From the NCBI GenBank assembly GCA_963745025.1, contig CAVUWD010000019.1:224001-288000 (forward strand): a stretch of 64,000 nt of DNA, read 5' to 3'. Source of the stretch: an uncultured delta proteobacterium. Lineage in GTDB: Bacteria > Desulfobacterota > Binatia > JACPRU01. Below are positions 25,152 to 51,471 of the stretch, one piece after another (position 1 is the first letter of the stretch; each line of letters begins with the position of its first letter). The notes below the pieces were generated by a model. That model ran no database searches. It saw only the letters and a list, made by a program, of their open reading frames with translations, and had not been told where the DNA came from. A program made the position numbers and the translations under genes.

Positions 25152-25157
25152 GTGCCG

Positions 25158-25429
25158 ATGTACCCGTTCAGTCTTCGTAGCAACGCCGCGAACTCCGAGG
25201 AGCGCTGGAGTTTCCCGCCGGGCCGTACTCGGCCCGACAGGAAACTCCAGCCACCGCGCGGAGGCGTCCCCTCCTGCGTAGCGCGGAACGCAACAACCCT
25301 CGGCGCTGGTCTATTGCCTTCCGCGCTCCGCGCGGTTGCGGTCGGTCGTGATCGACCCGAGTACGGGCCGATCATGACCGACCGCGCTCTCCGCCTTGCC
25401 GAAGGGTCGTGCGAAAACTGAGGGGGTAC
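25158..25429. mobile_element. Three-hairpin non-autonomous repeat element, copy A
   Basis: Core 25202-25390 homologous to three other copies; outer imperfect inverted repeat GTACCCGTTCAGTCTTCG/CGAAAACTGAGGGGGTAC; GTGCCG direct repeats at 25152 and 25430. Confidence 0.8.
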
Positions 25430-26458
25430 GTGCCGGTCCGTATCGAAGAGATCATCGAGCGTATCCGACGGGAGATCGCCGACGAGGCAAACGCCGCGCC
25501 GACCGATCGTTCCGCTCCCTCCGACGTCGACCGATTGCCGGCGATCGCCACGCGGCCGGAGCTCGACTACCTGAATCGGAACTGGCACCTCTTCGATCCG
25601 CTCTCGGAGATGCGCTCGCATCGGCGCTGGTTTGGCCCGCTCGTGGTGAGCTTGCGTTGGAAGCTCCGCCGGGTGGTGCTCGGGGTGCTCGATCGCTACT
25701 TCGAGAAGGAGCGGCTGTTTCTGATCGAGCTCGTGCGCTTCAACAATGCGCTCGCCGAGCGCAGCGACCGGCTGCTTCGCGAGGTGACGGAGCGCACGAA
25801 AGCGGTCGCGGAGCGAAACGACCTCTTTCTCGGCGCCCTCGACGTTCGCCTCGAGGCGCTCGAGGCGCGGGAGCAGTTGCGCCGGGTGCTCGTGGATTCG
25901 CCCCGGGGGCTCGCACCGCAGGCCGGCGACGCCGAGGAGTCCGTGCTCGCGGAGATGGCGATCGCGGTCGGCGCCGGTCTCGGGGAGCGCGTCCGGCCGT
26001 TCGGCGACTATCTCCGTTCCCCGGGGTCCGTTCTCTTGCTCGGTTGCGGCGACGGCGAGGTCTTCGAGGCGCTCGACGGAATCGCCGCGACGGGCGTGGA
26101 GGCGAGTGCGTCGCTGGTCGACGAGTGTCGCTCGCGGGGATTCGCGGCCGAGGTCGCGGCGCTGCGCTCCTACCTGGAGGCGGTGCCGGAGGGCTCGCTC
26201 GGGGGTCTGGTGATCACGCGGGTCGTCGATCGCCATCCACTCGCGGCGTGGCCGCGCCTCGTCGCAGCGGCATGGCGGTCGCTGCGGCCCGGGGGAATGG
26301 TCCTGTTCGAGGGGCTCGCGGACGAGGGCGCCGCCGCCCGGCTGCGCTGGCTCGCCGGGCGGCAGCGGTTCACGGTCGTCGATGCCCGCGAGTTCCCCGG
26401 TGATGGACGCGCGCCGCGGGAGCGCGTCCTCGTCTGTCGGCGTGTCGAGGCGACGTGA
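25430..26458 (+). CDS. Coiled-coil plus SAM-methyltransferase-like protein (putative glycan chain terminator)
   Basis: Helical N-terminal half, then VLLLGCGDGE (motif I-like), GVEAS, SLRPGG; lies after wzt. Confidence 0.65.
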   Translation: MPVRIEEIIERIRREIADEANAAPTDRSAPSDVDRLPAIATRPELDYLNRNWHLFDPLSEMRSHRRWFGPLVVSLRWKLRRVVLGVLDRYFEKERLFLIELVRFNNALAERSDRLLREVTERTKAVAERNDLFLGALDVRLEALEAREQLRRVLVDSPRGLAPQAGDAEESVLAEMAIAVGAGLGERVRPFGDYLRSPGSVLLLGCGDGEVFEALDGIAATGVEASASLVDECRSRGFAAEVAALRSYLEAVPEGSLGGLVITRVVDRHPLAAWPRLVAAAWRSLRPGGMVLFEGLADEGAAARLRWLAGRQRFTVVDAREFPGDGRAPRERVLVCRRVEAT

Positions 26459-28101
26459 GCGCGCAAAGAAGACGGCTCGCCTTCGTCGGCCCGCTTCCGC
26501 CGGTGCGCAGCGGGATTGCCGATTATGCCCGCGACCTGCTGCCCCACCTCGTCGAGGATTTCGAGGTCGAGGTCTTCGTCGACGATCGGCATCCCCTCGT
26601 GGCGGAAGGCGCGTACGGCACACTTCGCCTGCATCCGGGCGCGGAGCTCGGGCGCCGCTTCGCCGACTTCGACTGCGTCGTTTACCAGATGGGCAACAAT
26701 CTCCATCATCGCTTTGTGCTCGAGCTCGCCCGCGAGTTGCCGGGGATCGTCGTTCTGCACGACCTCGTTCTTCATCATCTCTACGAGGAGATCGCCGGCC
26801 TCGAGGACGAGTGGGAGCCTTATGGCGAGGCGCTGCGCGAGGGCTACGGCCCGATCGGTGGCGCGGTCGTGCAATGGAAGCGCTGGCGTCTCGCCTCGGA
26901 GCGCGAGAACTTCGCGTTGCCGCTCTTCGAGCCGATCGGCGCGCGCAGCCGCGGAGTTCTCGTGCACAGCCGCTCGGCCGAAGCCGAGGTGCGCCGTCGC
27001 TTGCCGCAGACGCCGGTCGAGCGGATTCCGATGGGCATCCCGCGCGAGCCGGAGCTCGACCGCGAGGGCGCGCGCCGCCGCCTCGGCGTATCGCCCGAGC
27101 AGGTGTTGATCGGCGCCTTCGGGTTCCTGACGCCGATCAAGCGGCTCGACGTGCTCGCTACGGCGTTGCGCGCCGCCTGGCGGCATTGTCCGGAGCTCCG
27201 GTTGGTCCTCGTCGGTGAGGCCAGCTCCGGTCTTCGATTGGAAGAGATCGTCACGCCGAGCGAGCTCGCCGGCGGTCGCGTCGAGCACCGCGGATACGTG
27301 GCCGCGGACGAGTATCGTGACTGGATGGCGGCGACCGACGTCGCCGTGAACCTGCGGTTTCCGTCCGCCGGCGAGACCTCGGCGAGCCTGCTCCGCCTTC
27401 TCGGCGACGGAAAATGCACGCTGGTCTCGGCCTACCGGCAGTTTCTCGAGATCCCCGCGGAGGCGGCGGTGCGAATTCCGCTCGGTGCGGAGGAGGAGGG
27501 GACGCTCGTGCGCGAGCTCGTCGCGCTCGCTCGCGATCCCCAGCGCCGGATGCGCATCGGACGGGCGGCCCAGGTGTTCGTCGCCGCCGAGCATTCGATG
27601 GAAGCGGCGGCCGGTGGTTTTTGCGCTGCCGTGCAAAGGATCGCGGTGTCGCGACCGTCGCCTCGGCCGCGCCTGCCGATCTGGCGACCCCCAGCGACGA
27701 GCCGCGGCGCGGCGGTTCATGCGACGGTCCGAGCGTCCGAGCCGCCGGCTCTCCGTTCGCAACCGGGCTCGGCCGTCGAGCTCGAGCTGTCGATTCGGAA
27801 CGATGGAGCGTCTCGCTGGATCTCGACGCCGGAGCGGTTCGGGGGGCACGTCGCGATCGCCGCCGACCTGCTCGGGGCGGGGGGCGAGCTCGTCGCGCGG
27901 CTGCGGCCGACCGCTCTGGTGCGGGACTTGGGCCCGGGCGAGGACGAATCCGTGCGGCTTCGCTTCACCGCCCCGCCCGATCGCGGCGAATACCTCGTCC
28001 AGCCGACGATCGTTCACTTCGGCCGCGGCGGGTCTCGGCCGGCCGGGAATCCGATCCCCCTCCTGGTGGCTCCGGACGCCGCCGGATGCTCTCCGCGCTG
28101 A
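26455..28101 (+). CDS. GT4 glycosyltransferase with C-terminal Ig-like domain
   Basis: GPLPPVRSGIADY, YQMGNN.HH, VVLHD, FGFLTPIKR, VNLRFPSAGETSASL. Confidence 0.85.
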   Translation: MSAQRRRLAFVGPLPPVRSGIADYARDLLPHLVEDFEVEVFVDDRHPLVAEGAYGTLRLHPGAELGRRFADFDCVVYQMGNNLHHRFVLELARELPGIVVLHDLVLHHLYEEIAGLEDEWEPYGEALREGYGPIGGAVVQWKRWRLASERENFALPLFEPIGARSRGVLVHSRSAEAEVRRRLPQTPVERIPMGIPREPELDREGARRRLGVSPEQVLIGAFGFLTPIKRLDVLATALRAAWRHCPELRLVLVGEASSGLRLEEIVTPSELAGGRVEHRGYVAADEYRDWMAATDVAVNLRFPSAGETSASLLRLLGDGKCTLVSAYRQFLEIPAEAAVRIPLGAEEEGTLVRELVALARDPQRRMRIGRAAQVFVAAEHSMEAAAGGFCAAVQRIAVSRPSPRPRLPIWRPPATSRGAAVHATVRASEPPALRSQPGSAVELELSIRNDGASRWISTPERFGGHVAIAADLLGAGGELVARLRPTALVRDLGPGEDESVRLRFTAPPDRGEYLVQPTIVHFGRGGSRPAGNPIPLLVAPDAAGCSPR

Positions 28102-28310
28102 TTCTCGCCTCGCTCTTTGGCGTGCCCGGTCTGGCGCTGCTGGCGGGCGGCCGCGCGCGCGGAGAAGCACCGCGAGGGATGGAACACGATCGAGCTCGAC
28201 GCCGACGGCTCGACCGGCGGACCGCCCGGCGCCTCGGCGCGCTCCGCGCGGGGCAGGATACCGCATTCTTTCTCTGGCAGGTGAGCGTGACGGCGGCGCA
28301 CGCTCGATGA
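28086..28310 (+). pseudogene. Short membrane-protein-like ORF or remnant
   Basis: MLSALILASLFGVPGLALL hydrophobic start coupled to the GT4 stop, followed by non-protein-like sequence. Confidence 0.3.
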
Positions 28311-28317
28311 TCCCCTG

Positions 28318-29837
28318 TTGACGCAGAGCGGCCCGCCGATTACTGCCGCGGCTGTGCCGCAGAGCGATCCGAGAAACCACTTGCTGTGGCCGCTTCTTGC
28401 GAAGAACCTGGTGCGCGGCAGGGCCGAAGAGACCGCGCTGGCGGCGGGCGAGCGCGCGATCTCGTACGGCGAGCTCGCCGCCGCAGTCCGGCGCGGCGGC
28501 GACGAGATCGACGCGCAGTTCGCAGCGGGTGCACGGGTACTGGTCGCCGCTCGCAATCAGCTTCACGTCGGCGTCGCACTGCTCGCGGCGCTCCAGTCGC
28601 GCGCGACTCCGTTGCTCGCGGACCCGACGTCGGTCGAACGGCTGCGTGGGATCGCTCGCGAGTGGCGACTTTCCGGAGCGATCGGCGAAAGTGAGGTCTT
28701 AGAAGCGACTGGCTTGCCGATCATCGGAACGTCGCGCATCGAATCCTGGCTCGGGGCGGCGCACGGCTCGCCACCAGACCTTCTCCCCCCTGCGGTCGCC
28801 GGCGGCGAGCCCAGTTTCTGGACGTTCACCTCGGGAACGATGGGAGAGCCCAAGGCCGTCGTCCATTCGCATCGCGGGCCGTCGGCCGCTTACGCGGCAT
28901 TCGCTAGCGGGGTCGTCCATCTCGGACCCGAGGATGTGACGATCGCGACTGCGGGGCTGCCGTTCGTCTATGCGCTCGGCAACAACTTCTTCTTCCCGCT
29001 GATGGCGGGCGGCACGGCGGTACTTCCATCGGACCTCCTGCTGCCCACGGTTCTCGGCGAGCTCGCGCGCCATGGTGCCAGCGTGCTCGTCGCCGGCCCG
29101 TGGTCGCTGTCGGGCATCGTGCGCCTGGTGCGGCGTGCGCGGTGGGTCGAGGCGATCCGCCGGTTGCGCTGCGTGCTGTCCGCCGGGGAACCGCTGCCGG
29201 AGCGCGTGTTTCTCGAATGGAGGAAGCGATTCGGCAAGGAAGTGCTCGACAACCTCGGCTGCACGGAGATGTTCAACTCGTTCGTGAGCAACACGATGGG
29301 ACGGGCACGGCCGGGATCGCTCGGGGAAGGGGTCCCCGGCTTCGAGATTCAAGTGGGCGGCGAGCCACCCCTGTCGGGCGCGAAGGGCGAGCTTCGCGTG
29401 CGCGGCGACAGCCGCGCGATCGCCGTCGGCCGCGCGGGGAAGCTGGATCCACCCGAGGGCGAGTGGTGCGATACCGGCGACGAGGTGGAAGTCCGCGACG
29501 ATGGAACGCTCGCGTTCCTGGGTCGTCGGGACGACCGTTTCAAGGTGAAGGGGCAATTCCTTCATCCCGTCGAGGTCGAGCGTTCGCTCGCCGAGGTGCC
29601 GGGCGTCGCGGAGTGCCTCGTCGTGGCCGAGCCCGACGCGGACGGCCTGGCCGTGGTCGTTGCCAAGGTCGTCGCCCACGAAGAAGTCACGGGAGGAAGA
29701 GCTGGTGTGCCGCCTGCTCCGGCATGCGCGTGCCCGGCTCCGAGCCGTTCGCGGTGCCGGAGCGCATCGACGTCGTCGAATCGTTGCCGAGGAGCGAGCG
29801 CGGCAAGCTCGTCCGCCGTGCGGCGGTCGACGGCTGA
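28318..29837 (+). CDS. Benzoate-CoA-ligase-like AMP-dependent ligase; two frameshifts near 29690-29742
   Basis: FTSGTMGEPKAVVHSH, FVYALGNNFFFPL, SAGEPLP, LDNLGCTEMFNSFVSN, TGD, GRRDDRFKVKG; tail LPRSERGKL in a shifted frame; start uncertain. Confidence 0.78.
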
Positions 29838-30202
29838 GCCCGGGGCCTGCTCGTGATGCGAGGCATGGCCAGCGGGCAGCCGGCATTGTCTTTGCCGCCA
29901 CTCTTCTCTGGTCCGCGCTCGCTCGCGCGGCTGGAGCGTACTGGGGCGACGGAAGCGGGAACGGCGGGCTGGCCGGCCCTGAGCGCTCCCCCATCGTTTG
30001 TCTTGGACCGACAACCAGCTGTTCGGCTCGTTCCGCGGCGCCCGTCATGGACCCCATTCTACGGTGGCCCACGCCGCTCGACCTCGCTGATGACGCTGTG
30101 AACGGGCGCCGCGGGACGGAGGATTGCCGCGCTCCGAGAATGAGCATCGACCCCGCGCCCGGCTCTTTACTTGACGGGCCCGCACCGATATCTCCGGCGC
30201 CA

Positions 30203-30883
30203 ATGAAAATCTCCGTGGTCATCCCGGTCTTCAACGAGCGAGACACGATCGCCGAGATCCTGTCTCGAGTCCGCCGCGCCCTCGACGGAAAAGACTCGGA
30301 GCTCGTCGTCGTCGACGACGGCTCGACCGACGGGACGCGCGAAGCGCTCCGCTCGATTGCGGGAATCCGGCTGATCGAGCACGAGCAGAACCAGGGTAAA
30401 GGAGCGGCGTTGCGCACCGGTTTCGCCGCGGCCAACGGCGACGTCGTGATCGTCCAGGACGCCGACCTCGAATACGACCCGCGGGACTATCCGAAGCTCC
30501 TCGAGCCCATCGAAGACGGCCGCGCCGACGTCGTATTCGGCTCGCGCTTTCTCGGCGGCCCGCACCGGGTGCTCTTCTTCTGGCACTACTTGGCGAACAA
30601 GCTGCTCACCTGGCTGTCGAACGTGTTCACGAACCTGAACCTCTCCGACATGGAGACGGGGTACAAGGTCTTTCGCCGCCCGGTGCTCGAGCGTATCCAC
30701 ATCCGCTCCGACCGCTTCAATTTCGAGCCGGAGATCACGGCGAAGGTGGCCAAGACGCGTTGCCGCGTCTACGAGGTGCCGATCTCGTACAGCGGTCGCA
30801 CCTACGACGAGGGCAAGAAGATCGGCTGGCGCGATGGTCTCTCCGCGCTGTGGACGATCATCAAGTTCCGATTCGTGGATTGA
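30203..30883 (+). CDS. GT2 glycosyltransferase (DPM1-like)
   Basis: MKISVVIPVFNE, VDDGSTDGT, NQGKGAA, QDADLEYDP, DMETGYK, FEPEITAK, EGKKIGWRDG. Confidence 0.92.
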   Translation: MKISVVIPVFNERDTIAEILSRVRRALDGKDSELVVVDDGSTDGTREALRSIAGIRLIEHEQNQGKGAALRTGFAAANGDVVIVQDADLEYDPRDYPKLLEPIEDGRADVVFGSRFLGGPHRVLFFWHYLANKLLTWLSNVFTNLNLSDMETGYKVFRRPVLERIHIRSDRFNFEPEITAKVAKTRCRVYEVPISYSGRTYDEGKKIGWRDGLSALWTIIKFRFVD

Positions 30884-31058
30884 GATAGGGCTCGAGCGCG
30901 GCTTGCCAAGGTCTCATGTCGTCGAGACCGAGATGCTCGAGGTGCCGGCGGGCGCCCACCCGAGCTGGCCGCGCGCGCCGGTGGTCATGATCGGCCCCAC
31001 GCGACGAGCCTTAGCGGAACGCCGGCAATCGATGCTACAGGAAGCGTCGTTTGAAGAT

Positions 31059-31309
31059 AATGCCTCAGTCTTTGCCTCCGGCGCTCGAGATCGCGAAGCG
31101 CTGGATTTTCCGGTCGGCCCGTACTCGGGTCGACCGGAAAATCCAGCGACCGCGCGCTAGCGCGGAAGGCAATCGACCAACTCGCGGGTTATTGCCTTCC
31201 GCGCTTCGCGCGGTTGCGGTTGGTTGTGATCGACCCGAGTACGGGCCGATCACAACCAACCGCGCTCTCAGGTTCCGAAGCGCTTGAGGCGAAGACCGAG
31301 GCGCTCCCT
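31059..31309. mobile_element. Three-hairpin non-autonomous repeat element, copy B
   Basis: Core 31098-31269; outer inverted repeat GCCTCAGTCTTTGCCTC/GAGGCGAAGACCGAGGC; TTTGAAGAT direct repeats at 31050 and 31310. Confidence 0.85.
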
Positions 31310-31310
31310 T

Positions 31311-32396
31311 TTGAAGATCCTCCACGTCGATCCCGAGACCTCCTTTGGCGGCGGGGAGCGCCAAGTCGCGGGATTGATCCGCCATCTTGCGAAGCGCGGT
31401 CACGAGAGCATTCTCGCCGCCCCCGCCGAGTCGCGGCTCGCCGCGATCGTTCCCGCTGCGGATGCGCGTCTGCGGCCGCTCGCGATTCGGAGCGACATCG
31501 ATCTGGTCGCGGCTCTCCGGCTGCGGCGGCTGGCTGCGGTCGAGAGCCCGCACATCGTTCATTTCCACACGTCTCGGGCGCACGCGATGAGCCCCTGGCT
31601 TCGGCGGTATGCCGGGCGAGCGATCGTGACTCGGCGCATGGATTATCCGCTCCACCCGGGGCCCTGGACGAACCTTCTCTACAACCGGTCGGTCGCGGCC
31701 GTGGTTGCGATCTCCGAAGAGGTGCGCCGCCGCCTGCTCGCTGCCGGAGTGCGCTCGGAGCGCGTTCGCGTCATCCACAGCGCGGTCGAGCCACCGGCAG
31801 GTTTGCCCGGCCGCGCGGGCCGTGCGGCCGCCCGCAAGCGCTTCGGCATCGACGACGAGCTGGCGATCGGCGTCGTCGCGGCGCTCGAACGACGCAAGGG
31901 ACACGACGTGCTCTTCCGTGCCCTCGCGCGCCTCGCGCCAGCGGGCGGGCTGCGGTTTTGCTGCGTGGTCTGCGGTGCTGGCTCGGAGCGGGCGGCCCTG
32001 GAGCGCCTCGCCCGAGAGCTCGGCATCGCGGGCTCCGTGCGCTTTCTCGGCGAGCAGCGGCAGGTCGCCGACGTGCTCGCCGCGCTGGACGTCTTCGTGC
32101 TGCCCTCCCGTCACGAAGGGCTCGGCGTGGCCGTCCTCGAGGCCATGGCGGCGGCCCTGCCGGTCGTCGCCTCCGCCGTGGGCGGCATCCCAGAAGCCGT
32201 CGCGGCCGGCCGCACGGGTCTTCTCGTCCGTGCCGAAGATCCCGACGCGCTCGCGGCGGCGATCGTTGAGCTCGGTCGGGACCGCGAGCGTGCCCGCCGC
32301 CTGGGCTCCGCGGGCCGCGATCGAGTGCTCGCGGAGTTCTCGATGGAGGTGATGGCGAGCCGCTACGAGCGCCTCTATGACGAGGTGAGCAGCTGA
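31311..32396 (+). CDS. GT4 glycosyltransferase
   Basis: MKILHVD...GGGERQ, RKGHDVL, FVLPSRHEGLGVAVLEAMAA.PVVASAVGGIPE. Confidence 0.92.
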   Translation: MKILHVDPETSFGGGERQVAGLIRHLAKRGHESILAAPAESRLAAIVPAADARLRPLAIRSDIDLVAALRLRRLAAVESPHIVHFHTSRAHAMSPWLRRYAGRAIVTRRMDYPLHPGPWTNLLYNRSVAAVVAISEEVRRRLLAAGVRSERVRVIHSAVEPPAGLPGRAGRAAARKRFGIDDELAIGVVAALERRKGHDVLFRALARLAPAGGLRFCCVVCGAGSERAALERLARELGIAGSVRFLGEQRQVADVLAALDVFVLPSRHEGLGVAVLEAMAAALPVVASAVGGIPEAVAAGRTGLLVRAEDPDALAAAIVELGRDRERARRLGSAGRDRVLAEFSMEVMASRYERLYDEVSS

Positions 32397-32444
32397 TCCG
32401 AGCCGGTTGCGTGCCTTTCCGGCATGAGAGATAACGGGCGCTCC

Positions 32445-32720
32445 ATGGACCGCGACGAGATCAAGCGCAGCCTCAAGCGACTGCTGATCGACGGGCTTCG
32501 CCTGCAGGGCCTTCGCGCCGACGACATCGAAGAAGCCGCGCCGATCTTCGTCGAAGGGCTCGGCCTCGATTCCGTCGATGCGCTCGAGTTCGTCGTGCTG
32601 GTCGAAGAGAAGTTCAACATCCAGATCCCCGACGAGGACGTCGGCAAGCGGGCCTTCGCCTCGATCGAGGCGCTGACCGATTACGTGTCTGCGGAGCTCT
32701 CTCGGGTTAATGGAACGTGA
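32445..32720 (+). CDS. Acyl carrier protein (aryl-polyene-type signature)
   Basis: PIFVEGLGLDSVDALE with phosphopantetheine Ser; C-terminal FASIEALTDYV. Confidence 0.92.
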   Translation: MDRDEIKRSLKRLLIDGLRLQGLRADDIEEAAPIFVEGLGLDSVDALEFVVLVEEKFNIQIPDEDVGKRAFASIEALTDYVSAELSRVNGT

Positions 32721-32917
32721 ACGCGGATCGAGCTGAGGGGCACGCGGCACGGTTTCTCGACCGTGGTGTGCTCCGCCCACAGCTCATCCGCTCGCACGCG
32801 GATGGATCCGCCAATGGCGGCTCATCCGTTGCGGCCTCGACACGGCTTCGACCGCTGCTGTCGGAGCGAAGAAGCGTCCACCTGCAACGAGTCTCCGAAA
32901 ACCGGTAGTCTCGGTGC

Positions 32918-34132
32918 ATGCGTCGCGTGGTGATCACCGGCATTGGCAGCTGGAACGGCTTCGGCGCCGGAGTGCCGGCGTTCCTCGATGCGCTGCGCGC
33001 AGGGGCGTGCGCGATCGGTCAGATGACCGTGTTCTCGACCGAGGGGTTTCGCACGCACCGCGCGGCAGTCGCGCCGGCCGCGAATGTAGGCGGCTGGGTG
33101 TCCACGCCGCTCGAGTTCCGGTTGTCGCGTTCCGACCGAATGGCCGTGGCGGCGGCGCGTGAGGCCTGGCTCGCCTCGGGGATTGCGGAAGCCGGGCTCG
33201 CAAGCGAGCGGATCGGAGTCGTCATGGGAGGGACCACCGGCGGGATGCTCGAGGCCGAGGACATTCTTCGCCGTCGCCAGTCGGGCGAGCTCGAGCGCAT
33301 GCCGGTGCGCGGTCTGGTGGCGATGCCGGTCTGCTCCACGGCGGACGTACTGGCCGCCGTGTTCGGCTGCGGGGGCCCGCGGTTCACCGTCGTGACCGCG
33401 TGCTCGTCGAGCGCCAACTCGCTCGGGCTCGCGGCCGATCTCGTCCAGGAAGGGCGTGCCGACGCGTTGCTCGCCGGTGGGACCGATGCGCACTGCAAGA
33501 TGACGTACGCGGGCTTCAATGCTCTGCAGGCGCTCGCTCCGGACGTGTGCCGCCCGTTCGATCGGCGCCGCGCCGGACTCTCGCTCGGCGAGGGGGCGGC
33601 GATGTTCGTGCTCGAGGAGGAACGACACGCGCGCCGGCGCGGAGCGGACATCCTGGCGGAGTTCGCCGGGTATGGCACCAGCGCCGATGCGCACCACATG
33701 ACGGCTCCGGACCCCGAGGGTCGGGGCGCGGTCGCGGCGATGCGGCGGGCTCTTGCGGAGGCCCGTCTCGCGCCGGAAGCGATCGATTACGTCAACGCGC
33801 ACGGCACGGGAACTCCACAAAACGATCCGATCGAGACGCGCGCGATCAAGGCCGTGTTCGGAGCCCACGCGCGGCGATTGGCCGTCAGTTCCACGAAGTC
33901 GCAGACCGGCCACTGCCTCGGCGCGGCCGGCGCGATCGAGATCCTCGCGACCGTGCTCGCGCTGCGCCACGGCTTTCTGCCGCCGACCGTCAACCTCGAA
34001 GAGCCCGATCCGGAGTGCGATCTCGACTATGTCCCGCGCCTCGCGCGTGCGCGTGATCTGCGCGCGGCCATGTCCAACTCGTACGGCTTCGGCGGCAACA
34101 ACACGAGCGTCGTGCTGAAGGCGTATTCATGA
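32918..34132 (+). CDS. Beta-ketoacyl-ACP synthase (active KS, FabF/type II PKS-like)
   Basis: Catalytic Cys in TACSSS, NAHGTGT, STKSQTGHCLGAAG, SNSYGFGG. Confidence 0.93.
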   Translation: MRRVVITGIGSWNGFGAGVPAFLDALRAGACAIGQMTVFSTEGFRTHRAAVAPAANVGGWVSTPLEFRLSRSDRMAVAAAREAWLASGIAEAGLASERIGVVMGGTTGGMLEAEDILRRRQSGELERMPVRGLVAMPVCSTADVLAAVFGCGGPRFTVVTACSSSANSLGLAADLVQEGRADALLAGGTDAHCKMTYAGFNALQALAPDVCRPFDRRRAGLSLGEGAAMFVLEEERHARRRGADILAEFAGYGTSADAHHMTAPDPEGRGAVAAMRRALAEARLAPEAIDYVNAHGTGTPQNDPIETRAIKAVFGAHARRLAVSSTKSQTGHCLGAAGAIEILATVLALRHGFLPPTVNLEEPDPECDLDYVPRLARARDLRAAMSNSYGFGGNNTSVVLKAYS

Positions 34133-41684: not shown

Positions 41685-41744
41685 CGATCCTCCCTTCTCA
41701 CTCAGGGAGGCACAGCCAAGCACAGAGACGACGACAACGAAAGT

Positions 41745-41774: not shown

Positions 41775-41872
41775 GCTCGATTGCGTGCCGCCGTCACCGC
41801 AAGCGCCTTGCGAGTCGACGGCGGACGGGCAATGAAGGCACTAGAGCTCGCTCGAAGGCGGAGGGCCCTCAC

Positions 41873-42301: not shown

Positions 42302-42305
42302 GAGC

Positions 42306-43028: not shown

Positions 43029-43900
43029 CGCCGCCGGTCCTCCGTGCGGCTCGACGCGAGCGGCCGGAAGCCGAAGGCCGCTCCGGCCGAAGCCGCCGCA
43101 CCGCGGCGGAGCACGAGCAACAAGCCGAAGGCGATGACGACGAGAACGATCGAGATCGCCTGCGCCGCGCGCAGATCGGACTCGAGTGCGGTGTAGACGG
43201 CCAGCGGGAGCGTCTGGGTGCGGCCGGTCAGATTGCCCGCGAACATCAACGTCGCCCCGAATTCGCCGAGCGATCGCGCCCAGCTCATCGCGGCGCCGGA
43301 AATCAGGCTCGGCGCCGCGCCCGGCAGCGCGACGCGAACGAAGGCCCGTAGCGGCGAGGCGCCGAGGCTGCGCGCGACGATCCACAGATTCGGGTCGAGG
43401 CGCCGGAACGCAGCGGTGGCCGCGAGCACGAAGAACGGCGCCGACACGAAGACCTCGGCGAGCACGACGGCGATCGTGGTGAAGGGAACGGCGATGCCGA
43501 AGCGCGCGAGCGAGGCGCCGAGCAGGCCCTTGCGGCCGAACGCCAGGAGCAGCGCCAGGCCGCCGACCGCCGGCGGGATGACGACGGGAAGCTGAACCGC
43601 GGTCTCGATCCACTGGCTGACGGTGCCCTCGCGCCGCACCAGCAGCCAGGCGAGCGCCGTGCCGGGAAGCACCACGAGCACGAGGCTCACGCTCGTCGTC
43701 AGCAGGCTCAGACGCAGCGCCGGCAGTACGAGCGGATGGCGAAGCCCGGCGACGAGGTCTGCGATGCCCGTGGTGACCACGAGCGCAACGATCGGCAGCA
43801 GCAGAAAGCCGAGCAATGCGAGCGCGGCGATGACGGAGAGCGCATGACCCAGAGCGCCCCTGCGCGAACCCGACCCGAGCCACCCCCCGCGCGCGCTCAC
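43025..43900 (-). CDS. modB: Molybdate ABC transporter permease
   Basis: LPVVIPPAVGGLALL, ARSLGAS, ARSLGEFGATLMFAGN, TQTLPLAVY. Confidence 0.92.
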   Translation of the reverse strand: MSARGGWLGSGSRRGALGHALSVIAALALLGFLLLPIVALVVTTGIADLVAGLRHPLVLPALRLSLLTTSVSLVLVVLPGTALAWLLVRREGTVSQWIETAVQLPVVIPPAVGGLALLLAFGRKGLLGASLARFGIAVPFTTIAVVLAEVFVSAPFFVLAATAAFRRLDPNLWIVARSLGASPLRAFVRVALPGAAPSLISGAAMSWARSLGEFGATLMFAGNLTGRTQTLPLAVYTALESDLRAAQAISIVLVVIAFGLLLVLRRGAAASAGAAFGFRPLASSRTEDRRR

Positions 43901-44697
43901 CTGGAGTCGCCGCGAGATACCGACTCGCCACCGGCGAGGAAGCCCGCCGCGGCAAGGGCGGCTTGACCCTCGGGACCCGACACCGCCTCGACCCATGCGT
44001 CGGCGAGCGTACGGTCGGGAGCGGCTTTGAGCACCGCAATCGAATACTCGGCGATGACGTTCACTCCGGGAGGAATTTCGACGACGACGACGTTCCCCCC
44101 GACGCTGGTCACGTCCGTGCGGTAGACGATTCCGGCATCGGCTTCGCCGAGCCGGACCTTGGCGAGTACCTGCCGAACGTTCAGCTCGTTCGAAACCACG
44201 CGCTCCTCGACTCGCTTGCGAAAGTCTCGGCCGTATCGTTCGGATGCGCGCTCGAGAATCTCGCGCGAATAGCGGCCGATCGGTACCTCCGGGCCGCCGA
44301 GCACGATGCGAGCCGCGCGGGGCAGGTCTTCGAGAGAGCGGATCGGTGCGGGGGAATCGGGGGTGACGACGAGAACCGGCGCGTTGCGAGCGAAGAGCCG
44401 CGGTCGCTCGACGAGCCCGAGCTTCACGAGCTTCGCCATGTTCGCCGGGTCGGCCGATGCGAAGACGTCCGCAGCCGCTCCGTTGAGAATCTGCGCGGCG
44501 AGCTCCTGGCTGCCCGCGAGATTGACGACGACGTGCACGCCGGGATGGCGCGTCTCGAAGCGTTCGGCGATCGTGCCGAAGGCTTCGCGAAGCGAGGCGG
44601 CGGCGAACACGACCATTGTACGCTCGCCCGCCTCGGCGGCACCGGCGTGAACGACCGACGCCAGCAACGCGACGACGACGGCGACCCGGCCCTTCAT
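43897..44697 (-). CDS. modA: Molybdate ABC transporter substrate-binding protein
   Basis: Signal peptide, VFAAASL, AGSQ.L..QI..GA.ADVFASA, VPIGRY, NVRQVL, GEADAGIVY.TD. Confidence 0.92.
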   Translation of the reverse strand: MKGRVAVVVALLASVVHAGAAEAGERTMVVFAAASLREAFGTIAERFETRHPGVHVVVNLAGSQELAAQILNGAAADVFASADPANMAKLVKLGLVERPRLFARNAPVLVVTPDSPAPIRSLEDLPRAARIVLGGPEVPIGRYSREILERASERYGRDFRKRVEERVVSNELNVRQVLAKVRLGEADAGIVYRTDVTSVGGNVVVVEIPPGVNVIAEYSIAVLKAAPDRTLADAWVEAVSGPEGQAALAAAGFLAGGESVSRGDSR

Positions 44698-44752
44698 GAC
44701 TCTTCTTTCGCGCGTTTGCGGGCCAAAGATCAACGTGCCATCACTCCGCTGG

Positions 44753-45808
44753 ATGAAGCGTCCGCTGCAGAACGATCGGTTTCTGCGCGCCTGCCGGCGC
44801 GAGGCGGTCGATGCCACCCCGGTTTGGTTCATGCGCCAGGCCGGCCGCTACATGGCGGAATACCGCGCGGTACGGGCGCACCACTCGCTGCTCGAAATCT
44901 GCAAACGGCCCGAGCTCGCGGCGGAGGTCACGCTGCAGCCCGTCGAGCGGCTCCGCGTCGATGCCGCGATCCTCTTCGCCGACATTCTGCTGATCCTCGA
45001 GCCGCTCGACGTCGGGCTGGAATTCGTGGCTGGGGATGGGCCGAGTCTCCGCCGGCCGGTGAGGAGCGCGAGCGACGTCGACCGGCTGCCCGGGTTCGAC
45101 GTCGAGACCGAGCTCGGCTTCGTCGCGGAGTCGGTTCGCACGATCGTCGGGCGACTCGACGGTCGTGTTCCGCTCATCGGCTTCGCTGGCGGGCCCTTCA
45201 CGGTCGCGAGCTACCTCGTCGAAGGGGGGCACTCGCGGAGCTTCGTCGCCACCAAGCGGTTGATGTACGGCGAGCCCGAGGTGTGGCACCGGCTGATGTC
45301 GCGTCTGGCTTCGCTCACCGCCGCCTACCTGCACATGCAGATCGAGGCGGGGGCCGACGCGGTGCAGCTCTTCGACAGCTGGGCCGGCGCGCTCGCGCCG
45401 GAGGATTACCGCCGCTTCGTGCTGCCGCATTCCCGAGCGGTGCTCGAGCCGCTCGCGGCGTCAGGCGTGCCCGTCATCCACTTCGGGACGCAGACCGCGG
45501 GGCTCCTCGCCGACATGCGGCGCGCCGGCGGCAGCGTCATCGGCGTCGATTGGCGGATCGAGCTCGCCGACGCCTGGGACCGGCTCGGTCCCGACGTCGC
45601 CGTGCAGGGAAACCTCGACCCGGTGGCGCTGCTCGCCCCTTGGCCCGTCACCGCGGAAGCGGCGCGAGGCATTGTCGCGAGCGTCGCCGGACGCGCCGGG
45701 CACGTGTTCAACCTCGGCCATGGCATCCTTCCGGAGACCCCCGTGGAGGCCGCGACGGACCTCGTGCAGCTCGTGCACGAGGAAAGCGCGAGACTTCTTG
45801 CCGGATAG
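44753..45808 (+). CDS. hemE: Uroporphyrinogen decarboxylase
   Basis: PVWFMRQAGRY, LIGFAGGPFTVASY, QLFDSWAG, QGNLDP, FNLGHGI. Confidence 0.97.
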   Translation: MKRPLQNDRFLRACRREAVDATPVWFMRQAGRYMAEYRAVRAHHSLLEICKRPELAAEVTLQPVERLRVDAAILFADILLILEPLDVGLEFVAGDGPSLRRPVRSASDVDRLPGFDVETELGFVAESVRTIVGRLDGRVPLIGFAGGPFTVASYLVEGGHSRSFVATKRLMYGEPEVWHRLMSRLASLTAAYLHMQIEAGADAVQLFDSWAGALAPEDYRRFVLPHSRAVLEPLAASGVPVIHFGTQTAGLLADMRRAGGSVIGVDWRIELADAWDRLGPDVAVQGNLDPVALLAPWPVTAEAARGIVASVAGRAGHVFNLGHGILPETPVEAATDLVQLVHEESARLLAG

Positions 45809-46003
45809 CCCGTAGAGGCCAAGTTCGGGTTTGCTCTGACAGGTAGAACGGAGTCGCGCACGGCCGCGAGGCGGATGAGCGGCGGCCCAGGATGCGCGAT
45901 CGAGGCAGCGCACGACTGCCGTCCGCTCGATCCGCGTTCGCGTCGGGCACGACTCGGGTGACGGAACCGAACGATTGACTGCCGCGCGGCCTCGGGTCAT
46001 GCA

Positions 46004-46339
46004 TTGGGTGTGGGGCTGACGTCGGGGTCGCTGCCGCGGTTCCTCTTCACCGGGAGAGCGCTGCAAGTCGTTGCGCACCTGCCCGACTTCGTCCGACTCT
46101 ACTGGCGCCTGTTCCGCGACTCGCGCGTCTCCGTCCTCGCCAAGGCCGTTCTCGTGCTGAGCTTGACCTACGTCGTCTGGCCGCTCGACTTCATTGCGGA
46201 CGTCGTGCCGGTGGTGGGCGAGTTGGACGATCTCGGCGTCGTGTTGGGCGGCCTGTGGCTCTTCATCCGCCTCTGTCCAGCGGACGTCGTCCGAGAGCGT
46301 GTTCGCGAGATTTCGACGAGGGCAAGGCCAGGTGGGTAG
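46004..46339 (+). CDS. YkvA/DUF1232 family membrane protein
   Basis: D.RV...AK, YVVWPLDFIADVVPVVGELDD; start uncertain. Confidence 0.85.
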   Translation: MGVGLTSGSLPRFLFTGRALQVVAHLPDFVRLYWRLFRDSRVSVLAKAVLVLSLTYVVWPLDFIADVVPVVGELDDLGVVLGGLWLFIRLCPADVVRERVREISTRARPGG

Positions 46340-49061
46340 ACGAATCGCCGTGGCGGTTGCGGTACTCGTGGTGCTCGGCCTGCTGCTCCTCGGCGCCGGC
46401 AGCGAGATCTTCGTCGATGCGCTGTGGTTTGCCCATCTCGGCGATCTGGTCGTGTTCCGCACGGTTCTCGGAGCCAAGATCGCGTGCTTCGCAGTCGCCG
46501 CGGCGATCGTGTTCGCGGTTGTGGCGGCGGTGGGGTTGTACGTCGTCGCCCACGTGCGCGACCGCGGCGTGGTTCGTGTCGTGCTGCGGCGGGGCAACGG
46601 CGCCGAGACCCTGCCGGAGCTGATCGCCCCATTCAGCGACCGGATTCCGTGGCGTGCGCTCGTGCTCGCCGTCTCGGCGCTGATCGCCTTCCTCTTCGGG
46701 CTCGGGCAGTCGGGCAACTGGGAGACCTACCTCCTGTGGCTCTACGGCGGACGCTTCGGCTCGGTCGAGCCCTTCTTCGGTCGCGATGTCGGCTTCTACG
46801 TGTTCGCGCTGCCCGCGTACCGCGCCATCGTCAACGCGCTGCTCGGTACGATCGTCTTGGCGGCCCTCGTCGGTGCGGCACTCTTCTGGCTTCAGGGGGC
46901 GATCGACTTTCGCCGACCCAGCGAGCCGCTGCCGCCGGCGGTGATGCGCTTCGTGTCGCTGGTGCTCGGTCTCTTTCTCGCGGTCAAGGGCTTCGACTAT
47001 TGGCTCGGGCGCTACGAGCTCTTGCTCGAGCCCTACGGCGCGGTGTTCGGACCGGGCTACACGGTGAGCCACGTGCGGTTGCCGCTCCAGTGGCTGCTCT
47101 GCGCGGCGGCGTTCGCCGGCGCGGCGCTCGCGCTCGCGAACTGGAGAGTGCGGGAATGGCGGCTGCCGGTCGGCGCCGTGGTTCTCGTGTTCGCCACCTC
47201 GCTGCTCTGCAGCGTGTTTCCCGATTTCTACCAGCGCTTGCGCGTGCGCCCGGACGAGCTCCGCCTCGAGCATCCCTATCTGCAGCACAACATCGATCTC
47301 ACGCGTCGCGCCTACGGTCTGGACAAGATTCAGACGCGAGCGTTCCCCGCCAAGACCCGGCTCGACCCGTCGGCGGTCGAGCGCAACCAAGCCACCTTCA
47401 AGAACATCCGTCTGTGGGATCCCGGGCCGCTGCTCGATACGTACCGCCAGCTCCAGGTCATCCGGCTCTACTACGACTTTCACGACACCGACGTCGACCG
47501 CTACGACCTTCCCGATGGCCGCCGACAGGTCATGCTCGCCGCGCGCGAGATCATGCCGTCGCTGCTGCCCGCCAACGCGCGGACCTGGGTGAACCAGCGC
47601 CTGCAGTTCACGCACGGCTTCGGCGCCGTGATGAGCCCCGTCACGGAGGTCGAGGGGGAGGGGCTGCCCGTTTTCTTCGTGAAGGACATTCCGCCGAACT
47701 CGCCGGTCGGTCTGCGGATCGACGAGCCGCGCATCTACTTCGGCGAGCGCACCGACGAGTACGTGCTCGTCGGCGGCGCCGCCGAGGAGTTCGACTATCC
47801 GAAGGGCGATGAGAACGTGGCCAACCGCTACGCCGGGCGCGGCGGCGTGCCACTCGGCTCCTTGCTTCGCCGTCTCGTTTTCGCGTGGAGCTTCCGAGAC
47901 CTGAACCTCTTGATCTCGGGTAACATTCGTCCCGAGAGCCGGATTCTCTTCCGCCGCTCGATTGGACAGATGCTGTCGCGGCTCGTGCCGTTCTTGAGGC
48001 TCGATCACGATCCCTACGTCGTCATCTCGCGCGGCCGGCTCTACTGGATCCAGGACGCGTACACGACGAGCGCGACGTTCCCGTACTCGGAACCCGTGCC
48101 GAATCTCGGCTTCAACTACATTCGCAACTCGGTGAAGGTGGTGATCGACGCATACGACGGCACGGTCGATTTCTACGCGGTCGACGAATCCGACCCGATC
48201 CTCGCCGCCTATGCCCGCATCTTCCCCGGCCTCTTCCACCCGTTCGCGGCCATGCCCGAGGACCTGCGCCGCCACGTTCGCTACCCGGAGGGCCTCTTTC
48301 TCATCCAGGCGGAGATGTATCGCACCTACCACATGACCAGCCCCGACGTGTTCTACAACAAGGAAGACTTGTGGAGCTTTCCGAGCGAGTCGGCGGCGGG
48401 CACGCGATCGGCCGTAGAGCCCTACTACATCATCATGAAGCTACCGGGCGGCGAGAACGAGGAGTTCCTGTTGATGCAGCCGATGACGCCCTCGAACCGC
48501 AACAACATGGTGGCCTGGCTGGCCGCGCGCTGCGACACGCCGAACTACGGCGAGCTGATCGAGTATGCATTTCCGAAGGAGCGCCTGATCTACGGGCCGC
48601 AGCAGATCGAGGCGCGCATCGATCAGGATACGGTGATCTCGCAGCAGCTCTCGCTCTGGAATCAGATGGGGTCGAAGGTGATCCGCGGGAACTTGCTGGT
48701 CATCCCGGTCGAGGATGCGATCGTCTACGCCGAGCCGCTCTATCTGCGATCGGAGCAAGGACAGATTCCGGAGATGAAGCGCGTCATCGTGGCCTACGGC
48801 GACCGGCTGGCGATGGAAACTTCGCTCGAGGCGGCGCTCGGCAAGGTGTTCGGGGGGGGCGCGCCGACACCGCCGCCGAGCGTGGAGACGCGTCAGCCGC
48901 CGGTCGAGGCCGCCGTGGAGTCGGTGAGAGACCACTACCGGGCGGCGCTCGACGGGCTGCGCGGTGGCGACTGGGCGACGTTCGCGCGCGAGATGGACGC
49001 GCTCGGCAAAGCGCTCGAAAGCGGGGCCGCGCGTCCTCCGCCGACGCCCACCGGCCACTAG
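46332..49061 (+). CDS. UPF0182 family membrane protein
   Basis: DVGFYVFALP, NIRLWD, DVDRY, FTHGFG, PRIYFGE, FNYIRNSVK, VIRGNLLVIP. Confidence 0.93.
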   Translation: MGRRIAVAVAVLVVLGLLLLGAGSEIFVDALWFAHLGDLVVFRTVLGAKIACFAVAAAIVFAVVAAVGLYVVAHVRDRGVVRVVLRRGNGAETLPELIAPFSDRIPWRALVLAVSALIAFLFGLGQSGNWETYLLWLYGGRFGSVEPFFGRDVGFYVFALPAYRAIVNALLGTIVLAALVGAALFWLQGAIDFRRPSEPLPPAVMRFVSLVLGLFLAVKGFDYWLGRYELLLEPYGAVFGPGYTVSHVRLPLQWLLCAAAFAGAALALANWRVREWRLPVGAVVLVFATSLLCSVFPDFYQRLRVRPDELRLEHPYLQHNIDLTRRAYGLDKIQTRAFPAKTRLDPSAVERNQATFKNIRLWDPGPLLDTYRQLQVIRLYYDFHDTDVDRYDLPDGRRQVMLAAREIMPSLLPANARTWVNQRLQFTHGFGAVMSPVTEVEGEGLPVFFVKDIPPNSPVGLRIDEPRIYFGERTDEYVLVGGAAEEFDYPKGDENVANRYAGRGGVPLGSLLRRLVFAWSFRDLNLLISGNIRPESRILFRRSIGQMLSRLVPFLRLDHDPYVVISRGRLYWIQDAYTTSATFPYSEPVPNLGFNYIRNSVKVVIDAYDGTVDFYAVDESDPILAAYARIFPGLFHPFAAMPEDLRRHVRYPEGLFLIQAEMYRTYHMTSPDVFYNKEDLWSFPSESAAGTRSAVEPYYIIMKLPGGENEEFLLMQPMTPSNRNNMVAWLAARCDTPNYGELIEYAFPKERLIYGPQQIEARIDQDTVISQQLSLWNQMGSKVIRGNLLVIPVEDAIVYAEPLYLRSEQGQIPEMKRVIVAYGDRLAMETSLEAALGKVFGGGAPTPPPSVETRQPPVEAAVESVRDHYRAALDGLRGGDWATFAREMDALGKALESGAARPPPTPTGH

Positions 49062-49125
49062 AGTCAGCCATGCGCGGCGTTCGTAGTGGACCCATCGAAA
49101 AGTACACGAAGCGGGGGGCTCGCGC

Positions 49126-49539
49126 ATGAGCCGTCCGGTCAACGACGAAGTCGTCCGCAGCTCGATCGTTCGCTCGCCCCTCGGCGGGTTGCTCGGCATG
49201 CAGGTCGAAACCATCGATGCCGATCACGTGCGCGTTCGGCTGCCGTTTCGCGCCGACGTCACCACCGGCGGCGGCATCGTCCACGGCGGGGCAATCTCGG
49301 CGCTCGTCGATGCCGCCGCCACGGGAGCGGCGTGGTCCGCCGCCGATCTCTCGGCGAACCCGCGCGGCACGACCATCGCTCTCGCCGTCAACTTCCTTGC
49401 CGCGGCGCGCGGTCAGGACATCGTGGCCGACGCGCGGGTGATCCAGCGGGGGCGTACGATCACGGTCTGCGAGGTTGCCGTGGAGGATGCAAACGGCCAG
49501 CGGGTCGCGAGCGCGCTCGTGACGTACAAGTTGGGCTAG
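49126..49539 (+). CDS. PaaI-family hotdog thioesterase
   Basis: GIVHGGAISALVD motif, 137 aa. Confidence 0.88.
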   Translation: MSRPVNDEVVRSSIVRSPLGGLLGMQVETIDADHVRVRLPFRADVTTGGGIVHGGAISALVDAAATGAAWSAADLSANPRGTTIALAVNFLAAARGQDIVADARVIQRGRTITVCEVAVEDANGQRVASALVTYKLG

Positions 49540-49568
49540 CCGTTTCGGGCGTTCGAAATTCCTGAAAT

Positions 49569-49737
49569 GCTGAATTTTCCGGTTGGCCCGCACTCGGGTC
49601 GACCGGAAAATCCAGCCAGCGCGCGCGAGGGCGGAAAACAATAGACGAATCCCGAGAGTTATTGCTCCCGCGCTCCGCGCGGTTGCGGTCGGTCGTGATC
49701 GACCCGAGTACAGGCCGACCACGACCGACCGCGCTCT
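49569..49737. mobile_element. Three-hairpin repeat element, copy C (core only defined)
   Basis: Same three arms as copies A, B and D with a few mismatches; lies between convergent genes; no clear flanking direct repeat. Confidence 0.8.
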
Positions 49738-49769
49738 TCGCGAAGCACGCGAACGCGAATACTTGCGGG

Positions 49770-51143
49770 TTACGTCCCGCGGAGCTCTGAAAACACTTCG
49801 CGGGCGTCGCGCTGATGCTCGAGCGAGAGCACGAGATGCTCGAGGCGGTCGGCCCGCTCGCTCGGCAGGGCGAGCCGAGCGTTCTTGCGAAATTTGACGG
49901 CGATCTCCTCGGAGCTCATCGGATTCTCAGGCCCGCCGCGCTGATTCGCAAGCTCGGCCTCGAGCACTCGACCGTCGCGGAGAACGATTCGAGCACCGCC
50001 CGGCAGCGCCTTGGGAAACGTCGGGAACGGTACGACCTCGTAGCGGACCTTGCGAGCGAGCTCGAGCACCCGCTCGTCGCCCATGGCCTCTTCCCGGTAC
50101 GAATCGAGGTCGACGGCTCCGTGGACGAGCATCGCCGCCGCGCTGAAGGGCAGGCTGAACTTGGCGTCGTAGGGGGTGCGCGGGCGCGCCTTGGCGTCCG
50201 CTGGCTCGAGAACCAGCGATACGGCAGGCTCCGGGACACGCAAGACGACGTCCGCGATCTCGTCGGCGGAGACACCTCGCGCGCCGACCGCCCGCGCCAC
50301 GGCATCGATCGGCGCGTGAATGTAGTGGCAGGCGGGGTAGGGCTTGAAGGCGATGCGCGGCGTCTCCCAGCGTCGGCCGAGATCTGCGAGGGCGGGCTCG
50401 AGATCGATCCGATGGACGTCGGCGAAGGCCGCAAAGAGTCCGAAGCGTCCCTCGAAGACCGACGCCGGCCCCGTCGCCCCGTGTGCCGCCAGGCTCGCGG
50501 CGACGAGTCCTGACTGTGCCGCCGCGCCGGCGTGCACCGGCTTGGTCTCGGAGCCGTCGGCGAGATACTCGAAGATGCCGCAGGCGAGGCTTCCGGCGAT
50601 GCCGAGTGCCTGAGCGATCGCCGGACGGTCGAGCCCGCGAAGCCGTGCAGCCGCCGCGGTGGCGCCGAAGACACCGCAAACGGAGGTCGGGTGGAACCCG
50701 CGGCGATGGAAGACTGCCGGGGCCGCCATGCCGATCCGGGTGATGATCTCGTTTCCGGCGACGAGGGCAACGAGAAGATCGGCTCCGCTCGCACCCCTTG
50801 CCTCGGCGGCTGCGATCGCCGCGGGTGCCATCACCGCGCTCACGTGACACACGGCATCGGTGTGCGTGTCGTCGAAGTCGAGCCCGTGACACAGCATGCC
50901 GTTGGCGAAAGCCGCGTGCGCCGCCGGCCATCGCTCCGCGACGCCGATGACCGAGGCTTCGGCCCGCCCGCCGCTCTCGCGCATCGCCTCGCGCCCGGCG
51001 GTGGCGATTCCGAGCGCGTGCGCGGCGAGGCCGCAGCCGAGCGCATCGAGGAGATGGAGCTTGGCCGCCGCGACGACTTCGGGCGGGATCGCTTGCAGCG
51101 AGAGCGACCGGGTCCAGGCGGCGAAGCGTTCGGCGGCGGTCAT
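49770..51143 (-). CDS. MmgE/PrpD family protein
   Basis: LLDALGC, NG..CHGLDFDDTH, GFHPT, K..HAG, KPYPACHYIH, AKFSLPF, RGGPENP. Confidence 0.92.
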   Translation of the reverse strand: MTAAERFAAWTRSLSLQAIPPEVVAAAKLHLLDALGCGLAAHALGIATAGREAMRESGGRAEASVIGVAERWPAAHAAFANGMLCHGLDFDDTHTDAVCHVSAVMAPAAIAAAEARGASGADLLVALVAGNEIITRIGMAAPAVFHRRGFHPTSVCGVFGATAAAARLRGLDRPAIAQALGIAGSLACGIFEYLADGSETKPVHAGAAAQSGLVAASLAAHGATGPASVFEGRFGLFAAFADVHRIDLEPALADLGRRWETPRIAFKPYPACHYIHAPIDAVARAVGARGVSADEIADVVLRVPEPAVSLVLEPADAKARPRTPYDAKFSLPFSAAAMLVHGAVDLDSYREEAMGDERVLELARKVRYEVVPFPTFPKALPGGARIVLRDGRVLEAELANQRGGPENPMSSEEIAVKFRKNARLALPSERADRLEHLVLSLEHQRDAREVFSELRGT

Positions 51144-51146
51144 GAG

Positions 51147-51471
51147 AGGCCACAGGCTACAGGCTTCCGGCTACCGGTTCCATGGTGTCGTAATACCTCA
51201 AGTCGCTGCCTCGAACGCTGGGGGTTCCTGAGCGCTGGATTTTTCGGTCGGCCCGTACTCGGGGCGATCGGAAAATCCAGCTCCCGCGCGGAGCGCGGAA
51301 TGCAGCTCTTCCGCGCTCCGCGCGGTTGCGGGCGGTTGTGGTCGACCCGAGTACGGATCGACCACAACCGCCCACGCGTTCCGTCTTGCCGAAACGTTTC
51401 GTAGCCAGAGACCCATGGTGTCGATGGCTTCTCTTGTCGGGCGGTAGCCGGTAGCCTGTAGCCGGTAGCCG
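51147..51471. repeat. Heptamer-array hairpin whose loop contains element copy D
   Basis: Left arm GGCCACAGGCTACAGGCTTCCGGCTACCGG (~51148-51178), right arm CGGTAGCCGGTAGCCTGTAGCCGGTAGCC (~51442-51470). Confidence 0.8.
51191..51412. mobile_element. Three-hairpin repeat element, copy D
   Basis: Core 51232-51372 with shortened middle arm; CCATGGTGTCG direct repeats at 51180-51190 and 51413-51423. Confidence 0.82.

Follow-up and report, generated by a model that had tools for sequence, protein, structure and literature searches.

Four copies of a sequence with several hairpins lie in a 64,000-nucleotide window of the genome of an uncultured delta proteobacterium (Desulfobacterota; Binatia), and sequence comparison indicates that they are very probably the inside of a miniature transposable element with inverted repeats (MITE) of the insertion sequence (IS) family IS66, a non-autonomous element that would be mobilized in trans and whose interior fold appears to be partly under selection. 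Position numbers refer to this window; the genome that contains it, G000, comprises 5.65 Mb and is 93% complete, and it was compared with a congeneric genome, G001 (82% complete), and with G005, from another genus of the same family. An earlier note had described the four copies as a cloverleaf of three hairpins (arms 1 to 3) with inverted GTAC cores; their positions and common orientation were borne out by the sequence, as was the exact reverse complementarity of the two cores of copy B. The cloverleaf folds far beyond chance (for copy B, z = -16.1 as DNA and -15.2 as RNA, with 0 of 200 shuffles as stable), but the real element extends about 45 bp further on each side, and the four copies in the window belong to a genome total of 97 loci.

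A profile model built from the four copies detected 91 loci in the whole of G000, and a full-length model detected 97 (E ≤ 0.01), of which 60 span both long hairpins and three locus pairs are halves of single elements divided by nested insertions. The MITE is about 250 bp long and encodes nothing. Its true ends, outside the cloverleaf, form an imperfect inverted repeat with the majority sequence GTAA(T/C)GCCTCAGTCTT (39 left and 33 right ends); with a score of at least 6, at least one end was recognized in 73 of the 97 loci and both ends in 26, compared with 6 of 400 random windows. Exact direct repeats of at least 8 nt within 2 nt of the ends flank 10 of the 26 two-ended copies, versus 0 of 650 mismatched (shuffled) pairs. 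When the ends were fixed by pattern, 6 of 13 copies, in two of which the left end was mis-called, matched at length 8 (at most one mismatch), the counts at lengths 6, 7, 9 and 10 being 0, 0, 0 and 1 and the control 0 of 156. Within the window, the 8-bp target duplications of copies B and D are exact and that of copy A agrees at 7 of 8 positions, while in copy C the left end is gone. The "extra closing stem" that the earlier note had seen in copies A and B exists, but it is the pair of IS66-type terminal inverted repeats (TIRs), flanked by these duplications.

The G001 site that corresponds to copy B is empty and contains a single copy of the 8-mer. The site of copy D is diverged and without the element, copy C is absent together with most of the adjoining gene, and the site of copy A (L127, G001:C9:69640-69826) holds a different small element of about 170 bp with inverted ends of its own. 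In G005 and in one metagenome contig, different MITE versions were found in the same intergenic regions as copies of G000, which suggests hot spots or a small number of tolerated sites.

A candidate partner is present in the same genome. A search with PF03050 yielded four places in G000. Three of them hold the same 1,882-bp element, whose copies agree at 1,881-1,882 bases and in two cases are flanked by 8-bp duplications. It encodes a DUF6788-like open reading frame (ORF; 27.0 bits, with a cut-off of 27.2), followed by a transposase in which the domains PF03050 and PF13005 are present. The majority left and right ends of the MITE agree with the ends of this resident IS in 14 of the 15 outermost bases, and blastn matches between the two are 16-22 nt long and restricted to the ends, with no more interior homology than chance words. 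Six related IS66 transposases (50-72% identity) were found in 250 genomes of the class and 400 of the phylum; four are associated with the same end motif, and two have no clear end. As a distant IS66 element of G001 (31% identical) has different ends, the match between the MITE and the resident IS is specific. According to the accessible text of three papers, GTAA/GTGA ends and 8-bp duplications occur in IS66 members (PMC12898284, which covers the ISDge4/ISBst12 group of the family; PMC3281130, with 8-bp duplications of ISPpa5 and ISPpa7; and PMC12888890, with GTAA ends of ISPsko1 and ISPa75). At G000:C6:484414-488185, two IS66 copies stand in direct tandem; the 8 bp between them equal the right flank, with a different sequence on the left of the first copy.

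The transposase of the intact 1,882-bp element, or of a close relative, would bind the terminal repeats of about 16 bp in trans and would insert the MITE by means of an 8-bp staggered cut. The IS66-like ends, the 8-bp duplications and the empty site of copy B together argue for movement in trans by a DDE transposase and not by an HUH enzyme. Of the earlier proposals, a non-autonomous element mobilized in trans is thus supported, whereas a REPIN-like HUH/RAYT mobilizer acting on single-stranded DNA is not; the ends and duplications point to the resident IS66 transposase. A match to a known IS end had been named as a possible end to the claim of novelty, and the ends do match those of an IS66 element, although the interior is unmatched by the resident IS and gives no sign of having arisen from it by deletion. 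The interior could still stem from an unsampled IS66 ancestor.

The end motif matched 104 times in G000: 56 matches lie in element loci, 22 in another repeat and six at the ends of the IS, the other 20 being scattered, and no separate spread family with the same ends and a plain interior was found among them. A repeat of about 83 bp with one sharp end, which contains an IS66-end look-alike, occurs at G000:C11:246957-247039 and about 21 other places and is clustered on island-like contigs (C3, C4, C6, C8 and C15-C17, C19 besides C11); three of its copies are followed by a motif that we take to resemble a XerC half-site. A young subfamily of nine MITE copies (G000 C14:220177, C14:32322, C13:321962, C10:163445, C11:346677, C5:173245, C16:85415, C2:195181 and C6:327148) has a rearranged, longer right end that finishes with TCACA, yet it retains 8-bp duplications, so that even a much changed right end would be tolerated by the transposase. 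The central spacer of the MITE contains nested insertions in several places (G000 C5:173245-173512, C16:85416-85685, C11:484572-484928 and C2:32013-32514; L116:1183-1660). The insertion in two young copies is a short palindromic footprint with a duplication of its own, longer inserts divide three elements, and the insert in G001 is a coding fragment with an apparent likeness to the end of an IS1595-type transposase.

The conserved unit of the interior is not the cloverleaf but a module that is present once on each strand. From outside to inside, each strand consists of the end, a linker, a 22-bp hairpin whose loop has 4 nt, a further 2 nt, a 6-bp mini-hairpin and an A-rich tail. The two modules stand head to head, and the earlier observation of an identical capped hairpin on either strand was thereby confirmed. 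The description is based on 123 modules with at least 17 of 22 pairs, in copies that had been found by similarity. The loop of the long hairpin is TACT in 83 of them, and its stem has a single mismatch at positions 3-5 from the loop in 112; 62 different sequences are found for the outer 14 bp, and the distance from the loop to the mini-hairpin is nevertheless 24 nt in 113 modules. The mini-hairpin reads GC-G(N/NN)A-GC in 116 modules, with all four bases at the second loop position; 78 of 84 three-base loops are GNA and 36 of 39 four-base loops are GNRA. Of the palindromes of this type, 113 of the 118 that lie within elements have a G..A loop, but only 4 of the 45 that lie elsewhere. The GTAC core on which the earlier note laid weight is present in the window copies, but it is not kept in G005. 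The two long hairpins are 116 nt apart in 17 of 49 copies and 114-117 nt apart in 37, and the spacing is too variable for a claim of helical phasing.

As DNA, this type of mini-hairpin is described as exceptionally stable, nuclease resistant and poorly bound by single-stranded DNA-binding protein (SSB), and it occurs at the phage G4 origin, the RSF1010 ssiA priming sites and the N4 vRNAP promoters, while RNA counterparts are much less stable (PMC13037366, accessible part). The earlier idea of recognition as single-stranded DNA, which fails as a route of mobilization, remains as a hint that concerns the interior alone and comes from its G(N)A mini-hairpins. The middle arm of the cloverleaf (arm 2) stood in part: it is the minimum-energy fold, but in the 60-copy alignment the long-range pairing at its base has no compensatory double change, compared with seven in the two local mini-hairpins formed by the same bases.

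Could the module pair be, or have been, a REPIN-like substrate of an HUH nuclease (RAYT or IS200-type) that was captured between IS66 ends? The head-to-head hairpins on each strand would agree with this, the stem mismatch at positions 3-5 recalls the bulge that group 2 TnpA-REP needs (PMC8266576, in part), and two genes for Y1_Tnp as well as one Y2_Tnp match are present in G000. However, a GTAG, GTGG or CGTC tag is found beside the long hairpin in only 2 of 123 modules and beside the mini-hairpin in none, no module is present at the Y1 loci, the nearest copies being 5.3 and 26.8 kb away, all well-preserved module pairs lie at a near-constant distance within IS66 ends, and the sequence of the long loop differs in G005. 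Such an origin is therefore regarded as very unlikely. The earlier note had advised to look for copies beside a transposase, HUH/RAYT or reverse transcriptase gene, and none adjoins a copy in G000: no copy lies within 5 kb of the two Y1_Tnp genes, the Y2_Tnp match or the seven IS110 matches (five over the cut-off), and a reverse transcriptase was not found in this 93% complete genome.

The covariation of the stems that had been noticed between the window copies was upheld in the larger alignment. The stem changes quoted for these copies are present, although the pairing of arm 3 in copy A includes one G.T wobble. In 33 modules chosen for diversity, 97.2% of the cells pair, and 160 cells are changed on both sides, which is more than in all 500 shuffles and all slid controls. 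For the outer stems, 29 copy pairs were formed on linker, centre and TIR columns and the most distant one was dropped; the remaining 28 disjoint pairs, in which changes were counted between extant copies and without direction, have 55 double changes versus 3-9 expected, in addition to 53 single changes. The double changes comprise 25 transitions and 30 transversions, like those in the linkers (128 and 139, p = 0.77), the distinct outer mismatches are G.T in 15 cases and A.C in 13, without wobble or strand bias, and in three of the 123 modules the core has been flipped end for end. The absence of transition and strand bias and the flipped cores are the pattern of template switching, which has been reported to fix stems and to invert spacers (PMC8794818; also PMC8604942 and PMC7202029, each as far as accessible). 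Thus, the covariation fits one-step template-switch copying better than stepwise RNA compensation via G.U pairs, and, to judge from this pattern, the long stems would stay paired mostly through template switching during replication, in which one arm is copied onto the other. The element is a plain example of covariation that is strong and yet does not argue for a structured RNA, and it offers about 120 natural replicates for the study of template-switch repair of palindromes.

The same pattern raises the question whether the interior of the MITE has any function, as template-switch self-repair together with gene conversion between copies might mimic selection. The bias-free double changes, the flipped cores and the published behaviour of template switching would all be expected in that case, and forms with one hairpin or with deletions exist. 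Nevertheless, several observations remain unexplained by it. Differences affect 22 of 660 positions in the mini-stem, compared with 267 of 1,413 linker and 61 of 352 TIR-core positions, and the mini-stem lies below the linkers even in the ten closest pairs (2 of 231 versus 31 of 523, p = 0.0008). The loop G and A differ at 4 of 111 positions and the middle of the loop at 19 of 67, and copying of arm onto arm cannot keep two unpaired bases while the base between them varies; nor does it explain the fixed stem length. Template switching alone therefore does not account for the conservation of mini-stem, loop G/A and stem length, and a wholly functionless interior is judged rather unlikely. The lower divergence of the mini-hairpin than of the TIR core suggests selection at the DNA level, on the DNA fold. 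Stem maintenance in copies with decayed ends (594 of 630 versus 708 of 728 pairs) was not used as an argument because it is circular through the detection filter.

Alternatively, the interior might act as a host RNA, for example as an RNase III site, a stabilizer or a terminator, as described for Correia and ERIC elements. The fold is very stable as RNA, the 22-bp stems correspond to about two A-form turns, and the four-base mini-loops mostly conform to GNRA. MITE transcripts are known as RNase substrates (PMC10969869, accessible text). In contrast, the three-base loops are mostly GNA, the typical DNA fold with much less stable RNA counterparts (PMC13037366, in part), and G.U pairs are not enriched. 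Of the 97 loci, 96 are intergenic (according to rough gene calls made here), and their gene contexts (tandem 59, divergent 22, convergent 16) correspond to the background (59, 26 and 16% of the intergenic bases); the element thus also lies between divergent genes, and its orientation is unbiased (29 same, 30 opposite). The Rfam covariance models gave no match in the window at the gathering score, so that the comparison with Rfam proposed earlier revealed no known family. Five RNA data sets contained 5-6% of the words, and the four that were examined cover gene fragments only, with nothing over the element, and so speak neither for nor against such a role. A role as host RNA is improbable, and the repeated structured RNA considered in the earlier note is not supported.

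Under the preferred explanation, an IS66-family MITE with a partly selected interior, the fixed stem length and the mini-hairpin would be kept by selection on folded single-stranded or extruded DNA. The selected benefit would most likely be the element's own spread, a hypothesis that is given slightly less than an even chance within this explanation; for example, a stiff 250-bp piece might fold so that its ends meet, or the element might be shielded from SSB and nucleases when single-stranded. A more specific version, in which the module is a selected single-stranded DNA signal (for priming, SSB exclusion or end synapsis) that was acquired outside the parent IS and raises the copy number of the MITE, is put forward only tentatively. 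If it is true, a parasite of a double-strand transposon relies on a folded-DNA step that, in the literature searched, is undescribed for IS66 elements or bacterial MITEs. The mechanism of IS66 transposition is poorly characterized (PMC12898284, in part); if the mini-hairpin module were needed for mobility, IS66 transposition would seem to include a step with folded DNA, a point that the three intact IS copies put within reach of a test.

Several points weigh against the preferred explanation. No duplication was found for 13 of the 26 two-ended copies. A matching IS66 element was not found in G001, which contains many MITE copies and is 82% complete, nor in G005, and no autonomous element with the module was found among the IS66 and Y1 loci examined, including the resident IS66, the six related IS66 loci and three IS66 loci of G001. 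MITEs without one long hairpin or without most of the interior keep their ends (two 200-bp copies as well as copies of 142 and 148 bp) and, in part, the duplications, and three of four elements examined in G005 have a single long hairpin, with differing loop sequences; the existence of one-hairpin forms with intact ends means that transposition can do without a second long hairpin. The energy models favour arm 2 over the local mini-hairpins, and the inner 9 bp of arm 2 contain 13 double changes, nine of them in one young subfamily. It should also be noted that detection by similarity and the filter of at least 17 of 22 pairs bias the conservation figures upward, and that the p values are overstated because pairs share ancestry and copies recombine; pairing on linker, centre and TIR columns biases the conservation figures in the opposite direction.

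The module was found only in this bacterial family among the genomes searched. The scan of related genomes with a covariance model, which the earlier note had proposed, detected copies in 2 of 149 class genomes besides G000, namely G001 and G005, both of the same family. A DNA search of 60 other genomes had matches in four, in two cases as a marginal single one, and the module pattern was found in 0 of 400 phylum genomes. Seven matches in a species-genome collection all belong to one assembly and are not independent of the search of relatives. Eight metagenome contigs matched, none of them with a tblastn match to the IS proteins, and viral contigs and plasmids yielded 0 matches each.

Table 1. 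MITE copies in the 64,000-nucleotide window and their component features
Feature	Position	Strand	Remarks
Copy A, full-length MITE of 270 bp whose IS66-type ends are degenerate	25160..25429	+	
Copy A, left target duplication	25152..25159	+	7/8 bases = 25430-25437; one copy at orthologous G001 site
Copy A, left 22-bp hairpin, TACT loop	25204..25251	+	left mini-hairpin loop carries a 17-nt insertion
Copy A, right module	25321..25385	-	22-bp hairpin 25338-25385, GGA mini-hairpin 25321-25335
Copy B, full-length MITE, ~252 bp	31058..31309	+	
Copy B, left target duplication	31050..31057	+	exact repeat at 31310-31317; G001 empty site with one copy
Copy B, left module	31100..31165	+	22-bp hairpin 31100-31147, GCTA mini-hairpin 31150-31165
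Copy B, right module	31199..31263	-	22-bp hairpin 31216-31263, GAA mini-hairpin 31199-31213
Copy C, decayed	49542..49773	+	no left TIR, right TIR reduced to a remnant; mismatches in both hairpins (49569-49616, 49685-49732)
Copy D, 225 bp, with truncated right TIR; member of the short-centre subfamily	51190..51414	+	hairpins 51234-51281 and 51328-51375; mini-hairpins 51284-51298 and 51311-51325
Copy D, left target duplication	51182..51189	+	exact repeat at 51415-51422

The genes that neighbour the copies in the window have no relation to mobility; copy C, for instance, is flanked by convergent thioesterase and MmgE/PrpD genes. Copy D is an insertion within a second dispersed repeat, which consists of tandem heptamers (GGCTACC-like) in inverted arrangement and occurs in the window at 6935-7015, 11397-11477, 13139-13176 and 51144-51476. 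This repeat has 336 tandem matches genome-wide, and it lies within 60 bp of 8 of the 97 MITE loci, compared with 93 of 5,000 random intergenic points. The window also contains two 75-nt direct repeats (9405-9479 and 9502-9576), 87% identical and 97 nt apart, which are similar to repetitive extragenic palindromic (REP) sequences and start near a GTAG tetranucleotide.

With IS66 family elements the MITE shares the GTAA/GTGA-type ends and the 8-bp duplication, but it is non-coding, and its resident partner has a DUF6788 ORF before the transposase and not TnpA/TnpB. The likeness to REP, REPIN and BIME sequences and their RAYTs consists in an inverted pair of short GC-rich hairpins, a conserved stem irregularity and the intergenic location (PMC8266576 and PMC3733652, accessible parts), whereas the tetranucleotide tag and an adjacent Y1 HUH/RAYT gene are lacking and the element is bounded by DDE-type TIRs and 8-bp duplications. 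The mini-hairpin is the same heptamer or octamer as in d(GCGNAGC)/d(GCGNNAGC), with a free middle base, within a longer stem and beside a larger hairpin; the MITE version sits in a chromosomal transposon, once per strand.

Prokaryotic MITEs such as Chunjie of Geobacter uraniireducens, QMITE2, Correia/NEMIS and RUP (PMC10969869 and PMC3733652, as far as accessible) are the closest frame of comparison. The element is short, non-coding and multi-copy, and it has TIRs, a target duplication and an empty orthologous site; like other prokaryotic MITEs it falls within 50-500 bp, has target duplications that fade with age, is intergenic, includes many truncated copies, forms stable stem-loops and would be mobilized in trans by a related IS. 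It differs in that its ends are of the IS66 type, it is GC-rich and not AT-rich, and its interior is not derived from the resident IS and is less divergent than its TIRs. IS66 is absent from the main text of the 2024 review (PMC10969869), and neither there nor by full-text searches of the literature was an IS66-derived MITE found, subscription papers and ISfinder aside. As a MITE the element is otherwise ordinary, and it is unusual only in that the DNA hairpins of its interior have been kept better than the ends on which jumping depends.

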